A stretch of 64,000 nt of DNA. Source: Candidatus Omnitrophota bacterium. Lineage in GTDB: Bacteria; Omnitrophota; Gorgyraeia; Zapsychrales; JANLHA01. This document shows positions 1 through 18,322 of this stretch, in pieces (within the stretch, counting starts at the first letter, position 1; each line of letters starts with the position of its first letter). The notes below the pieces were generated by a model, which ran no database searches, was not told the DNA's origin, and saw only the letters and a program-made list of their open reading frames with translations. Both the position numbers and the translations under genes were made by a program. The stretch spans positions 8,173-72,172 of the forward strand of contig JBFMEN010000029.1 of NCBI GenBank assembly GCA_040753435.1, given 5' to 3'.

Positions 1-345
1 ACCGACGCGTTTCCCGTCAGGGCTAATAAAAACAGCGGTGTTATAAACCTTGTTTTCCGAAGGAATTTTTTCATAAATCGATCCCAGCACAATAAACGTC
101 TTTGTTTCTTTGGCCACGCCCTCAAAAAGCCTGACAGTCGGGCCTTTGAGGGTTTCTGCGACTTTTTTTTGTATCGTCTCAAGCGGCGTTTTGCCCCGGA
201 AAGAAAAGCATTCAGGGAAAAGAATCAACCGTGCCCCCTGAGCGGCGGCCTCTCTTGCAAAATTCTCGGCCCGACAGAGATTTTTTTCTTTGTTTACCCC
301 TGCCTTCATTTGAATCAAGGCGATTTTTAGATTATTCACACCCAT
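1..345 (-). CDS. Carbon-nitrogen hydrolase (nitrilase superfamily) family protein, N-terminal part; CDS runs off the window edge
   Basis: Minus-strand translation from the ATG at 345-343 gives MGVNNLKIALIQMKAGVNKEKNLCRAENFAREAAAQGARLILFPECFSF... The KIALIQ and LILFPE motifs mark the N-terminus of C-N hydrolases. The ORF is absent from the track because it is truncated at the window edge. Confidence 0.5.
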   Translation of the reverse strand, partial: MGVNNLKIALIQMKAGVNKEKNLCRAENFAREAAAQGARLILFPECFSFRGKTPLETIQKKVAETLKGPTVRLFEGVAKETKTFIVLGSIYEKIPSENKVYNTAVFISPDGKRVG

Positions 346-15107: not shown

Positions 15108-15645
15108 GCATATTGTTTTGGGAGTTACTGGAAGCATCGCGGCTTACAAGGCAGCGGATATCGTTCGATGTTTGAAAAAAAAAGGCTGCCGCGTCTCGGT
15201 TATCATGACTCGCTCCGCCCAGGAATTTATTACACCTTTGACAATGGCTATTTTGTCTGAGGAGAAAGTCTGGCGCTCCATGTTTGAAGATGAAGCGCAG
15301 GAACGGATGTTGAATCATCTTTGTTTGGCCCAGGCTGCCGATGTGTTTGTGATAGCCCCGGCTACGGCCAACGTGATCGGGAAAGTTGCCAATGGCATAG
15401 CGGACGATCTTTTAACGGCTGTTGCCATGGCCACACGCGCTCCGGTGATCGTTGCTCCTGCAATGAATGATAAGATGTGGACAAATCCGAGGGTTCAAGA
15501 AAACTGCAAAAAGCTGCAGAGCCAGGGAGTCATATTTGTGGGACCGAAAGAAGGCGGGTTGGCTTGCGGGGTTTATGGACCGGGGCATATTGCGGACGTC
15601 GATGAGATTGTTAATGAAATCGAAAAATTAACGCGTAATGCATAA
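15082..15645 (+). CDS. coaC: Phosphopantothenoylcysteine decarboxylase flavoprotein (CoaC domain only; no CoaB ligase domain is fused)
   Basis: HIVLGVTGSIAAYKAADIVRCLKKKGCRVSVIMTRSA and PAMNDKMW match the CoaC flavoprotein. At about 185 aa it is too short for a bifunctional CoaBC. The start overlaps the rpoZ 3' end. The track ORF begins at 15031. Confidence 0.8.
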   Translation: MPKMNPQVKHIVLGVTGSIAAYKAADIVRCLKKKGCRVSVIMTRSAQEFITPLTMAILSEEKVWRSMFEDEAQERMLNHLCLAQAADVFVIAPATANVIGKVANGIADDLLTAVAMATRAPVIVAPAMNDKMWTNPRVQENCKKLQSQGVIFVGPKEGGLACGVYGPGHIADVDEIVNEIEKLTRNA

Positions 15646-15713
15646 TCGGCAACAAGAACATGTGCCGTGTTGCTTACGCGTCATTTTTTAAATGCTCATT
15701 GAAAAAATTTGAT

Positions 15714-15787
15714 GGTGACGTGGCCGAGTGGTTAGGCAGAGGTCTGCAAAACCTCGTACAGCGGTTCGAACCCGCTCGTCACCTCCA
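15714..15787 (+). tRNA. tRNA-Cys (anticodon GCA), CCA encoded
   Basis: Acceptor GGTGACG/CGTCACC. Anticodon stem GAGGT/ACCTC with loop CTGCAAA. T-loop TTCGAAC. Confidence 0.8.
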
Positions 15788-15914
15788 GCTTCAGAATTAA
15801 GAAATAAGAAAAAAACCAAAATCAGGACAGGTTTTTTAAAAAGTTCTCATTTGTATTTTTGGTTTTAAATGTTTTTGTATTATTTCTTATTGCTCAATGA
15901 TTATTTGTAAAGAG

Positions 15915-15997
15915 GGGCAAGTGGTGGAATGGCATACACGCAGGACTTAAAATCCTGTGGCCGCAAGGCTGTGTGGGTTCGACTCCCACCTTGCCCA
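15915..15997 (+). tRNA. tRNA-Leu (anticodon UAA), long variable arm
   Basis: Acceptor GGGCAAG/CTTGCCC. Anticodon stem CAGGA/TCCTG with loop CTTAAAA. Variable arm gtggccgcaaggctgt. T-arm GTGGG-TTCGACT-CCCAC. Confidence 0.75.
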
Positions 15998-16052
15998 TAT
16001 CGTTGGAAGAAGCAAGAAGAGCGAGCCTTTATAAATAGTGTGAATTTTAGAA

Positions 16053-16129
16053 GGACCCGTAGCTCAGTTGGTTAGAGCGCTTCCTTGACATGGAAGAGGT
16101 CACAGGTTCGAGTCCTGTCGGGTCCACCA
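16053..16129 (+). tRNA. tRNA-Val (anticodon GAC), CCA encoded
   Basis: Acceptor GGACCCG/CGGGTCC. D-arm TAGCTCAGTTGGTTAGAGC. Anticodon loop TTGACAT. T-arm ACAGG-TTCGAGT-CCTGT. Confidence 0.85.
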
Positions 16130-16162
16130 TTTGATCGCGCCCCGTTTTAAGACCAGAAGATG
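16070..16162 (+). repeat. Direct repeat copy 1 (93 bp). It spans the 3' two-thirds of tRNA-Val plus 33 bp downstream and ends in agaagATG.
   Basis: Identical to 16466-16558 except for 4 substitutions. Confidence 0.85.
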
Positions 16163-16471
16163 GCTGAAAAAACTTTATGCTGGGTTTATGTATTGAAGAG
16201 TTTGAAGAACGGGAAGCGATATGTCGGGTTTACCAAATTGCTTCCCGAACGACGGTTAAAGCAACACAACAATGGAAGCAATAAATGGACAAGGGAAAAC
16301 GGTCCGTTTAGACTAATTTATTCGGAGTCGTATGAAAGCCCAAGAGCGGCAAGACAGCGAGAACGGTTTTTAAAGAGCGGCGTCGGCAGAAAATTTTTAG
16401 ACAGTGCGTTATTTGATGTTACGAGCGGCTCAGTTTCCGCCAAAGGCGGACCCGCCTCTGGCGGGGGTTAG
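16160..16471 (+). CDS. GIY-YIG nuclease superfamily protein (small, stand-alone)
   Basis: WVYVLKSLKNGKRYVGFTKLLPERRLKQHNNG... has GIY-YIG-like core spacing (YV....Y.G.T..L..R...H). Its ATG is the last triplet of direct repeat copy 1. The last two codons lie in repeat copy 2. Confidence 0.6.
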   Translation: MAEKTLCWVYVLKSLKNGKRYVGFTKLLPERRLKQHNNGSNKWTRENGPFRLIYSESYESPRAARQRERFLKSGVGRKFLDSALFDVTSGSVSAKGGPASGGG

Positions 16472-16558
16472 AGCGCTTCCTTGACATGGAAGAGGTCACA
16501 GGTTCGAGTCCTGTCGGGTCCACCATTTGATTGCACCCCGTTTTAAGATTAGAAGATG
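16466..16558 (+). repeat. Direct repeat copy 2. It carries a partial tRNA-Val copy (D-arm to 3' end at 16466-16525, a 3' remnant that is not a functional tRNA) plus 33 bp.
   Basis: The sequence ggttagagcgcttccttgacatggaagaggtcacaggttcgagtcctgtcgggtccaccatttgat... is duplicated. The 5' acceptor strand is missing. Confidence 0.85.
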
Positions 16559-16576
16559 TATACTTGAGACATTTTT

Positions 16577-18322
16577 ATGAACAATGAACATTTAAACAAA
16601 TTACGACACAGCTGTGCTCACGTGATGGCCCAGGCGGTCAAAAAGCTTTGGCCTGAAACGAAGATCGCAATCGGACCGGCTATTGAAAACGGGTTTTACT
16701 ATGATTTTGATAAACCCGAACCCTTTACCGACAAAGATCTGCGCATCATTGAAAAAGAGATGCGCTGTATTATTAGCAAAAAGCCTGACATGGCCTGCTC
16801 CTTGCTCCCTCGAGAAGAGGCAATAAAGTTCTTTGAAAAACAAAATGAAATTTATAAAGTAGAACTTATTCGCAACATCCCTGACGAAAAAGTTTCCCTT
16901 TACAAAACAGGAGAGGATTTCGTTGACCTTTGCAAAGGACCTCATGTTGAAAATGCCGGCGAGATTAAAGCAGATGCATTTAAGTTGTTGTCTGTGGCGG
17001 GGGCGTATTGGCGGGGCGATGAAACCAAGCCCATGCTCCAGCGTATTTACGGCACATGCTTTGAATCAAAGGCTGAACTCGACGAATATTTGAAATTGCT
17101 TGATGAGGCTGAAAAACGCGATCACCGCAGGCTGGGAACACAGCTGGATCTGTTTCATATTTATCATGAAGAAGCCGGAGCCGGCCTTGTTTTTTATCAT
17201 CCCAACGGCGCCATCCTCCGCAAGATCATAGAAGATTATGCGAAGGAAAAGCATTTGAAAAACGGATATGAACTGATCATGACGCCGAACATTTTGAAAG
17301 GAAAGCTGTGGGACCAGAGTGGACATTCGGGATATTATCGCGAGAACATGTATTATTTTGAAGTTGACGAGGAAGATTATGCCGTGAAGCCCATGAATTG
17401 CCCGGGGCACATGCTTATTTATAAATCACGGCTGCATTCTTATCGTGAGTTCCCTATACGCTGGTTTGAGCTTGGAACCGTTTACCGCCAGGAAAAAGCC
17501 GGGGTTCTTCACGGGTTGCTGCGCGTGAGGGGTTTTACTCAGGATGACGCCCATATTTTTTGCATGAAAGAACAATTGAAAGATGAAATCAAGGGCGTTT
17601 TGGAATTTGTTTTTTCAACGATGAAAGACTTCGGATTTAGCGCCTGGGATGTCGAGATCAGCACCCAGCCAGAAAAACACATTGGAGATGATAAGGATTG
17701 GGAATATGCCACCGAGGTGCTGAAAAGTTCTTTGAAAGAAAAAGAGATTGATTTCAAAATCAACGAGGGCGACGGCGCTTTTTACGGACCGAAGATCGAT
17801 ATTAAACTCAAAGACGCTATCGGGCGTTCGTGGCAGTGCGCGACAATTCAATGCGATTTTGCGTTACCGGAACGTTTTGACCTGACCTATATGAATGAGG
17901 AAGGGCAACAGATCCGGCCGGTCATGATTCATCGGGCTGTTTTCGGGAGTCTGGAACGATTTATTGGCACGTTAATCGAACATTATGCTGGAAATTTCCC
18001 TGTCTGGCTGGCGCCTGTCCAGAGCGTAGTGATCCCTATTGGCGACGGGCACATAGAGTTTGCCCAAAAGGTCAAAGAACAATTGCAGGGGCAGGGTTTC
18101 CGTGTTACGCTTGATAACAGAAATGAAAGTCTCGGCAAAAGAGTGCGCGAGAACGCGATGAAAAAAGTCCCGTATGTTTTGATCATCGGGGACAAGGAAA
18201 AAGAAGCCGGACAGGTTTCGGTGCGTAAGCGCGGGAATGAAGATTTGGGCGCGATGGATGTGAATATGTTTATTAAGCGATTGAAGGAAGAAAGTGAAAA
18301 TAAATTGGCGGCTGGCAACTAG
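16577..18322 (+). CDS. thrS: Threonine--tRNA ligase (no N-terminal TGS domain; begins at the editing-domain HxxxH region)
   Basis: RHSCAHVMAQAV (editing domain), class II motifs (FRQEKAGVLHGLLRVRGFTQDDAHIF), and a C-terminal anticodon-binding domain. 581 aa. Confidence 0.93.
   Translation: MNNEHLNKLRHSCAHVMAQAVKKLWPETKIAIGPAIENGFYYDFDKPEPFTDKDLRIIEKEMRCIISKKPDMACSLLPREEAIKFFEKQNEIYKVELIRNIPDEKVSLYKTGEDFVDLCKGPHVENAGEIKADAFKLLSVAGAYWRGDETKPMLQRIYGTCFESKAELDEYLKLLDEAEKRDHRRLGTQLDLFHIYHEEAGAGLVFYHPNGAILRKIIEDYAKEKHLKNGYELIMTPNILKGKLWDQSGHSGYYRENMYYFEVDEEDYAVKPMNCPGHMLIYKSRLHSYREFPIRWFELGTVYRQEKAGVLHGLLRVRGFTQDDAHIFCMKEQLKDEIKGVLEFVFSTMKDFGFSAWDVEISTQPEKHIGDDKDWEYATEVLKSSLKEKEIDFKINEGDGAFYGPKIDIKLKDAIGRSWQCATIQCDFALPERFDLTYMNEEGQQIRPVMIHRAVFGSLERFIGTLIEHYAGNFPVWLAPVQSVVIPIGDGHIEFAQKVKEQLQGQGFRVTLDNRNESLGKRVRENAMKKVPYVLIIGDKEKEAGQVSVRKRGNEDLGAMDVNMFIKRLKEESENKLAAGN

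Follow-up and report, generated by a model that had tools for sequence, protein, structure and literature searches.

A 396-base GIY-YIG cassette at a tRNA-Val gene of an Omnitrophota bacterium and a family of related loci with hairpin-interrupted tRNA copies

Known systems and the cassette under study

Bacteriophage T4 carries within its tRNA gene cluster a free-standing GIY-YIG homing endonuclease, SegB, whose recognition site holds a conserved tRNA motif, the T-psi-C stem-loop, and which spreads its own gene and the neighbouring tRNA genes via break-induced recombination (PMC2330249). Here we describe a cassette of 396 extra bases that lies between tRNA-Val and thrS in a 64-kb stretch of contig JBFMEN010000029.1, from a Candidatus Omnitrophota metagenome-assembled genome (MAG); we refer to this whole stretch as the window, and coordinates are positions within it. 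As in T4, a GIY-YIG gene sits among tRNA genes, but the cassette protein is chromosomal, consists of the catalytic domain only (~80 amino acids), falls in the UPF0213/Slx1 clade and has no significant match in cultured phages, whereas SegB is a larger, multi-domain phage protein. The cassette also differs in that its open reading frame (ORF) is fused to the 5′ end of a tRNA and is accompanied by partial tRNAs interrupted by a hairpin doublet, neither of which is reported for SegB loci. Our preferred interpretation, to which we give a probability of roughly 0.6, is that these 396 bases represent one member of a family of selfish cassettes that reside in tRNA genes and spread by homing-like recombination.

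Four further systems invite comparison. The best sequence and fold matches to the cassette protein are UPF0213/YhbQ (COG2827) and the nuclease domain of eukaryotic Slx1, which are of the same size and likewise single-domain. UPF0213/YhbQ and Slx1 proteins are treated as cellular structure-specific or repair nucleases, and in the openly readable literature we found no report that ties them to tRNA linkage, target duplication or hairpin repeats. REP/REPIN repeats with their RAYT genes share with the cassette short GC-rich palindromes, a foldable inverted doublet, dispersed copies and a small nuclease gene that the repeats flank (PMC3116915). The cassette gene, however, encodes a GIY-YIG protein and not an HUH tyrosine transposase, its doublet is only 30 nt long with no spacer, and in gene-carrying genomes the doublet concentrates in tRNA fragments and not in extragenic space at large. 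Integrase-type tRNA islands also target a tRNA gene, which they restore with a tRNA segment of their own, so that an intact tRNA remains beside a direct repeat of the duplicated segment; in contrast, the cassette lacks an integrase, measures 0.3–0.4 kb rather than kilobases, mostly duplicates the 5′ part of the tRNA, and carries a hairpin insert in the spare copy. Finally, in “collaborative homing” a free-standing endonuclease gene reportedly acts together with a separate insert that disrupts the target (cyanophage psbA with F-CphI; the DNA polymerase of T3-like phages). The cassette resembles this in having an endonuclease gene beside its target and a separate insert within the target, here the hairpin doublet or, in five tRNA-Asn loci, a group I intron. 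The doublet is no splicing intron, however: a tRNA copy that it interrupts is dead, which makes another, intact copy necessary.

In the openly readable full-text literature, we found no description of this architecture; the searches turned up only SegB and studies of rRNA insertion sequences in candidate phyla radiation (CPR) bacteria. What is known is thus a free-standing GIY-YIG selfish gene at tRNA genes; what is new is the minimal size, an ORF that is fused to the 5′ end of the tRNA and shares a stop codon with it, the tRNA duplicates interrupted by the doublet and the apparent, occasional replacement of the tRNA.

The cassette at tRNA-Val and its protein

All features of the locus lie on the + strand. 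The functional tRNA-Val(GAC) occupies 16053..16129 (ARAGORN; Rfam tRNA score 74.8 bits; acceptor stem GGACCCG) and is followed by a GIY-YIG ORF of 103 codons at 16160..16471, which was recognised in the ORF list and by Pfam, protein alignment and an AlphaFold2 (AF2) model. Downstream of the cassette lies thrS (16577..18322), a conserved neighbour that was identified from the ORF list and from ThrS homologs and their loci, and that served as the synteny anchor. The conclusion that the cassette was inserted at tRNA-Val rests on five syntenic Omnitrophota contigs that do not have it. We traced four distinct ThrS proteins, 76–79% identical to that of the window, to their contigs, and found in the longer loci the gene order yicC, gmk, rpoZ, a flavoprotein gene, tRNA-Cys, tRNA-Leu, tRNA-Val(GAC), thrS, infC, rpmI, rplT. 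The five syntenic contigs (loci L081–L084 and L086) contain all three tRNAs with a single tRNA-Val, which is separated from thrS by 15–51 nt (the called thrS start overlaps the tRNA in L083), and neither the GIY-YIG ORF nor the hairpin doublet was found in any of them. The gene is therefore present or absent at a conserved locus, though the relatives compared are distant (ThrS only 76–79% identical), and the insertion proposed in the original prediction stands. Judging by its acceptor stem, which is the same in L081 and L086, the window tRNA-Val is of the resident type, and at an empty site its end at 16129 with the flank would adjoin atgtatacttga. In L086, a 5′ fragment (about positions 1–33) of a different tRNA-Cys allele lies at 501–535, ~45 nt upstream of the intact tRNA-Cys; it has no ORF and no hairpin doublet, and may be the scar of a lost element.

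The locus contains a direct repeat of 93 nt (16070–16162 and 16466–16558) whose copies are 96% identical, far beyond what chance would produce. Copy 1, defined by repeat search and alignment, covers tRNA positions 18–77 and continues through 30 nt of 3′ flank to the ATG, which is the start codon of the ORF. Copy 2 consists of the same part of a disrupted tRNA-Val (positions 18–77, at 16466..16525), identical to the intact gene at 60/60 positions by blastn, and of the duplicated flank with its ATG (16526..16558). This post-CCA flank holds all four mismatches (16136/16532, 16139/16535, 16153/16549 and 16154/16550), each of them C:G in copy 1 and T:A in copy 2. The last letters of either copy are agaagATG, and copy 2 is followed by a three-codon dead-end ORF (atg tat act tga, 16556..16567), presumably sequence that lay upstream of thrS before the insertion. 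The coordinates given in the original prediction were all accurate. The pseudo-tRNA shows no differences over 60 nt where, by our own rough estimate, ~3–4 would be expected from the rate in the flank; gene conversion by the live tRNA may be the reason, or very uneven decay. No other tRNA in the window has a partial duplicate (blastn).

Copy 2 had been taken for a 5′-truncated tRNA. It is indeed a partial copy, but its 5′ side is not simply missing: tRNA positions 10–17, GCTCAGTT, remain at 16428..16435, as the sequence and comparison with the homologous locus L003 show, and are split off from the rest by an insert of exactly 30 nt. This insert, TCCGCCAAAGGCGGA + CCCGCCTCTGGCGGG at 16436..16465, is a GC-rich hairpin doublet (hereafter hp), identified by RNA folding and repeat counts, and sits exactly between tRNA positions 17 and 18; the copy then resumes with GGTTAGAGC from 16466. 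The original prediction had overlooked this doublet, on which the whole architecture turns. Copy 2 is thus a D-loop-interrupted pseudo-tRNA, and the 93-nt repeat begins in the D-loop exactly at the hp insertion point. The sequence 5′ of the remnant, gatgttacgagcg, is decayed and occupies the place of the ORF/tRNA junction gatgttaGGGCGCTTAGCTCAGTT in L003. ARAGORN made no call on copy 2, and the Rfam tRNA model reached only 27.4 bits, below its gathering score of 29, and this over 16465–16522 only. Its fold scored z = -1.5.

We considered whether copy 2 might be a working tRNA, since 16448–16525 can be folded with an acceptor stem, and rejected this: ARAGORN and Rfam do not accept it, and the fold is no better than those of shuffled sequences. 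The foldability arises from a GGACCCG within hp (16448–16454) that equals the 5′ acceptor strand of the very tRNA-Val that hp interrupts, so that a 7-bp acceptor stem can form in addition to the anticodon and T arms. This match is probably a coincidence, because the same hp variant also occurs beside tRNA-Pro and tRNA-Asn. Such a fold could provide a substrate for RNase P, similar to a minihelix, inside the 3′ end of the ORF. On the minus strand, opposite the two tRNA copies (16091–16209 and 16487–16600), the Rfam models HPnc0260 and Plastid-ycf2 gave matches below threshold; these are almost certainly artefacts of tRNA-like sequence within those models.

The ORF has no stop codon of its own. 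It continues through the tRNA remnant and through hp, whose 30 nt supply ten codons, until it meets the TAG (16469–16471) within GGTTAGAGC, a D-loop sequence of the tRNA, which is why it overlaps copy 2. Homologs are ~80 amino acids long and end near residue 84; accordingly, the conserved core of the window protein is ~80 residues, and its last 19 (85–103), the read-through of remnant and hp, have no counterpart in most relatives, although homolog P0005 has the same read-through tail. At the other end, homologs start M-x-x-VYVL, and the window ORF is five codons longer, beginning at the ATG on the repeat edge. The canonical start, three codons before VYVL, falls in a stretch that reads TTA TGC TGG in the window (with an out-of-frame ATG at 16177) and is therefore TTA, so that the ORF depends on the repeat-edge ATG. 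As far as the sequence can tell, this fits a borrowed host start context, as the original prediction had suggested.

That the ORF encodes a GIY-YIG protein was supported by profile search and by structure. PF01541 matched residues 7–73 (16178..16378) with E = 1.6e-15 and 57.6 bits against a cut-off of 22.6. The AF2 model, built with 27 sequences, had a mean predicted local distance difference test (pLDDT) score of 86.6, and its elements (E7–14, E20–25, H29–37, H42–47, E50–58, H61–72 and H74–89) follow the strand-strand-helix-helix-strand-helix-helix order of the GIY-YIG fold, in which helices flank a three-stranded sheet; the C-terminal 19 residues, which derive from tRNA and hp DNA, are disordered in the model, with pLDDT dropping to 56–61. 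Residues Y10, Y21, R32, H36 and E68, which are catalytic, are invariant in the 27 sequences. The only PDB sequence matches were the UPF0213 proteins 1zg2 (E = 1.4e-8) and 1ywl (E = 5.5e-8), namely BH0048 and EF2693, and Foldseek ranked 1zg2 and the Slx1 nuclease domain in places 1–10, with I-TevI and UvrC far weaker (E > 1). On this modelled structure, the protein is best described as a stand-alone catalytic domain of the structure-specific Slx1/UPF0213 kind. An I-TevI- or Seg-type homing endonuclease was rejected: no DNA-binding domain is present, TIGR01453 scored 16.8 bits against a cut-off of 56, and PF19835 (SegE) was below its cut-off.

Architecture of the family and conservation of the hairpin doublet

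Scanning a single genome for each species, we obtained at least 554 confirmed relatives and analysed the best 80 loci. As labelled, these come mainly from Patescibacteria and Omnitrophota MAGs, with some from WOR-3, Elusimicrobia, Dehalococcoidia and others. Within the window the GIY-YIG gene is single; further copies beside tRNA fragments occur in these other loci. In 60/80 loci the ORF is followed by a co-oriented tRNA called by ARAGORN that starts -40 to +70 nt from the aligned ORF end, and in 5/80 by a tRNA-Asn with a group I intron. The mirror form seen in the window accounts for 4/80 loci (5 with L001), while in another 5/80 the ORF runs into a contig end or Ns; in the remainder, the ORF is followed by an hp-interrupted copy, usually with an intact tRNA beyond. 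The commonest partner is tRNA-Asn, then Lys, Val, Ala and Ile, with Pro, Met, Phe, Arg, Asp and Thr also represented. The ORF stop codon lies inside the tRNA at about 32/62 junctions, about 20 times at exactly T8-A9-G10.

Among the 60 loci with a tRNA after the ORF, 57 have a 5′ fragment of that tRNA just upstream of the ORF, and 29 have 3′ fragments behind the intact tRNA. Within the fragments, hp-type doublets sit in loop positions: CAGTT|GG(T/C)T (D-loop, or anticodon stem of Asn), CTTTT|AAGGAG (Lys anticodon loop), position 8|9 in Ala, AGCT|CAATGG in Asn and GGTT|CGA in the T-loop. Where it could be measured, the dead copy ends about 8–18 nt (mostly 8–13) past hp on the ORF side, and this distance holds whatever the insertion position (8|9, 12|13, 17|18, 28|29 or 36|37). 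A general layout of A, ORF, B and, at some loci, C follows from this. Part A reads tRNA(1..x), hp, tRNA(x+1..y); part B, to which the 3′ end of the ORF is fused, is the intact tRNA; and part C reads tRNA(w..x), hp, tRNA(x+1..76). A rarer mirror layout (B, spacer, ORF, C) was seen in the window and in L001, L006, L009 and L053. L038 has an intact tRNA-Val(GAC), 41 nt, the ORF and a disrupted copy, and L210, whose ORF is 69% identical to that of the window, shows the common layout at tRNA-Val(GAC) and, like the window, has hp at 17|18. The 93 bp had been read as a target duplication; seen against the family, they are not a transposase-type target-site duplication but its arrangement of one intact and one hp-interrupted tRNA, in mirror orientation.

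The doublet itself is conserved. In the window it reads TCCGCC-AAA-GGCGGA + CCCGCC-TCT-GGCGGG, the second hairpin being approximately the reverse complement of the first; its RNA fold has -21.2 kcal/mol (z = -4.7), and this variant can also be folded as one long hairpin that extends the D-arm. A single copy is present in the 64 kb, at the cassette, where 0.01 would be expected by chance, and all of its 30 nt are identical to those of the hp in L047, from a Patescibacteria MAG. Comparing the few hundred nt around the ORFs of the 80 loci with their ±2.5-kb flanks, we counted 97 copies in 56.8 kb against 6 in 300.9 kb, an 86-fold enrichment (shuffled loci gave 1), with a median distance of 23 nt between hp and the aligned ORF start. 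The doublet structure recurs at about 100 loci. It had no Rfam match as a known RNA family, and is a member of a conserved REPIN-like repeat family.

Several observations bear on movement of the cassettes, and they are in line with the mobile part of the original suggestion of a mobile or homing element, in that the cassette is very small and homologs sit at many different tRNA genes with partial duplications; a homing enzyme of the I-TevI/Seg type does not fit, as no DNA-binding domain is present. ORF similarity follows the tRNA type only in part (30/52 nearest neighbours share the tRNA), and close ORFs are found at different tRNAs, for example with 84% identity between an Asn locus and a Pro locus. 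L032 has two identical units in tandem, and L002 carries an extra ORF-less unit nested in the D-loop when compared with its 90%-identical relative L030. In L017, L019, L077, L208 and L210, the intact tRNA is unlike the fragments that flank it, while the outer fragments fit each other. The differences in L019 affect the acceptor, D- and T-arms, and its 5′ and 3′ halves match each other; L017 differs in a 7–66 pair and has separate flank stems, and L077 has an identical tRNA with different complementary flanks. These comparisons suggest that at these five loci the resident tRNA was split by a cassette that came with a tRNA of its own. Many loci have a contig edge right at the cassette.

Two kinds of sequence accompany some of the tRNAs beside the ORF. 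Group I introns (Rfam RF00028, 60–90 bits) sit in the anticodon loop, after CTGT, of the tRNA-Asn(GTT) directly following the GIY-YIG ORF (L010 2836–3067, L026 2689–3024, L070 2758–3061, L076 748–1102 and L079 482–691), and L068 has a similar insert below threshold; in the window, no Intron_gpI match was found at 15600–16700. Mutually complementary flanks of 8–14 nt bracket many of the tRNAs after the ORF and lengthen their acceptor stems among L013, L015, L017, L019, L020, L057, L066, L077 and L080, as in the L015 arrangement of gagaaatcccttt, tRNA and aaagggatttctc. These flank pairs differ between resident and cassette-borne tRNA copies.

Possible routes of spread and competing explanations

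Under the homing-like interpretation, the cassette would consist of a promoter-less GIY-YIG gene of ~80 codons whose 3′ end is joined to the 5′ end of a tRNA sequence, a second and partial copy of this tRNA, and hp in a loop position of the partial copy. We infer that the nuclease breaks or nicks DNA in or near the tRNA gene or the hairpin, and that repair, with the tRNA homology of the cassette serving as arms, would copy in the ORF, hp and sometimes a replacement tRNA. By analogy with T4 SegB, such break-driven spread would be homing-like. A single recombination between a resident tRNA gene and a unit of ORF and hp-interrupted tRNA could yield either form: a crossover 5′ of hp would give the common form (A, ORF, B), in which a 5′ fragment with hp is followed by the ORF and the intact tRNA, and a crossover 3′ of hp would give the mirror form (B, ORF, C), in which the intact tRNA is followed by the ORF and the hp-interrupted 3′ copy, with a long 3′ repeat that in the window would be the 93 nt. 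Throughout the family, the outcome at a locus is exactly one intact tRNA and exactly one partial tRNA interrupted by hp, and the ORF separates the two. Promoter and terminator scans of the cassette gave nothing above shuffle expectation, and because no such signal stands out, the tRNA operon probably provides for expression of the ORF by read-through. At junctions with the stop codon inside the tRNA, RNase P cleavage would strip this codon from the message. The sharing of the stop (U8-A9-G10) implies that RNase P processing and nuclease translation would compete on one transcript, which would be an unusual regulatory coupling.

A number of findings weigh against this interpretation. The intact tRNA beside the ORF keeps the very sequence at which hp sits in the dead copy, so a nuclease that simply cut that site would cut its own locus, and the protein has no recognisable DNA-binding or specificity domain for sequence-specific homing. 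The hp subtype is uncoupled from the ORF phylogeny: the window has TCCGCC/CCCGCC, while its closest ORF relatives, L003 and L208, have TCAGCC/TCCGCC. Nor is hp private to the cassette, an idea that was ruled out when a metagenome scan seeded with hp returned 124 dispersed copies, few of them near tRNAs and only about 6–8 of them near a GIY-YIG gene. In 23/37 parsed loci the intact tRNA and the fragment upstream do not differ, as would also be the case after a purely local duplication; local duplication and spread between identical alleles are equally possible for these loci. The tRNA flank is not conserved at the nucleotide level, so the relatives do not fix the boundaries of the 396 bases, and the window cassette was found in one MAG contig only. 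Circular forms were not seen either, in that three homolog contigs of 425–503 nt lacked terminal overlap and were ordinary common-form loci.

Three of these points, namely the retained hp site, the missing specificity domain and the independent life of hp elsewhere, make a REPIN/RAYT-like relationship the main rival. Here the 30-nt doublet would be the mobile entity, inserting 3′ of TT in hairpin loops, and the GIY-YIG protein would be its structure-specific nuclease, analogous to RAYT; the gene would mostly be resident beside hp, and the tRNA duplications would be collateral of hp-induced breaks in tRNA-gene loops. The inverted doublet does resemble a REPIN (PMC3116915). The dispersed copies away from tRNAs have TT directly 5′ of hp in 86/121 cases, and some of them lie in the loops of larger inverted repeats or in tandem arrays; single pseudo-tRNAs can contain several or tandem insertions (L034, L038, L050 and L098); the nearest structural relatives of the protein, such as Slx1, are structure-specific nucleases; and hp flanks the gene nearly always, with a subtype that does not track the ORF lineage. 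On the other hand, the window has its one hp at the cassette, and the ±2.5-kb flanks of the 80 loci are nearly free of hp, so these stretches of the gene-carrying genomes give no sign of a high-copy repeat. This rival also leaves three features without an explanation: the fusion of the ORF to a tRNA 5′ end, the lack of the gene in syntenic relatives and the change of ORF partners between tRNA types. We hold it to be possible but unlikely. As a separate observation on hp, short tandem arrays in which the intervening 20–100 nt are also repeated occur at L098 12–180, L050 2440–2859 and L013 2871–3026.

A bolder proposal, which we put forward tentatively and consider doubtful, is that the cassette is the smallest autonomous bacterial mobile element known (~0.3–0.4 kb), with an 80-residue Slx1-like GIY-YIG nickase as a new type of prokaryotic transposase acting on single-stranded hairpin loops. 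Its targets would be the loops of tRNA-gene cruciforms and the REPIN-like 30-nt doublet, always 3′ of TT, and copying would proceed from nick to nick in a rolling-circle or cointegrate-like manner, which would explain the tandem units, the presence of hp at one or both ends and the duplications of tRNA segments. At some loci the cassette would bring its own tRNA and destroy and replace the resident gene, so that it could not be lost.

It is improbable, in our judgement, that the ORF is a domesticated host gene, that is, a small UPF0213-type nuclease with a cellular role in repair or processing that is co-transcribed with tRNAs, the fragments being the result of ordinary local duplication and decay. 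UPF0213/YhbQ-type proteins are encoded by widespread chromosomal genes; the family comprises 4132 clusters at 50% identity with E ≤ 1e-3 (326 with E ≤ 1e-10), and the catalytic residues are conserved over thousands of clusters. The protein had no match in 50,697 records of cultured phages, one weak match in plasmids and one contig in IMG/VR, and the 23/37 loci with identical fragments would suit a local duplication. A host gene would not, however, be expected to be missing from five syntenic relatives, to vary its partner tRNA, to occur in tandem or nested copies and as ORF-less derivatives, to keep a constant geometry of fragment, hp and ORF, to lie beside foreign tRNA alleles or to sit where assemblies break.

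Direct repeats of the 3′ part of a tRNA with its flank are a hallmark of integrase insertion into tRNA genes, and such a repeat is confirmed here. It is nevertheless very improbable that the 93-nt repeats are the attL and attR of a tRNA-targeting integrative element whose island was almost wholly deleted, leaving the GIY-YIG gene as residual cargo: there is no integrase, recombinase or island gene, the 303 nt between the repeats are filled by the ORF, and the neighbours are housekeeping genes in conserved synteny. Moreover, the repeat begins in the D-loop exactly where hp is inserted, and the same geometry of ORF, tRNA and hp is found in 80 loci with mostly 5′ tRNA duplications, which are not an integrase product. 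Least credible is a MAG assembly artefact, a chimeric join or falsely duplicated repeat. In its favour, the window sequence comes from one contig, MAG assembly is prone to errors at repeats, and contig edges cut off many of the homologous loci. Against it, four positions distinguish the repeat copies, a continuous ORF crosses them, the mirror architecture occurs in independent assemblies (L001, L006, L009, L038 and L053) and synteny is intact on both sides.

If the cassettes are mobile in the homing-like manner that we favour, a gene of ~240 nt and a 30-nt hairpin would suffice to colonise essential tRNA genes without killing the host, which would set a new lower size limit for protein-coding selfish elements; the hosts are mostly uncultured phyla, chiefly Patescibacteria and Omnitrophota. 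Mobility would also suggest a function for many proteins annotated as “GIY-YIG nuclease family protein”, given the size of the family. The cassettes explain one source of tRNA pseudogene fragments and of contig breaks in MAGs, and they link a REPIN-like repeat to a nuclease family other than the HUH transposases. For biochemistry, the protein offers a compact and possibly structure-guided nuclease with a defined DNA partner.

A last group of loci contains tRNA and hp without the gene. In L145, L166, L197 and L107, hp-interrupted 5′ fragments of a tRNA precede an intact tRNA with no GIY-YIG ORF between them; the intact tRNA is a tRNA-Ile 32 nt after hp in L145 and a tRNA-Val 91 nt after hp in L166. 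These may be cassettes from which the ORF was deleted, or they may represent hp and a tRNA duplication that arose without the ORF.

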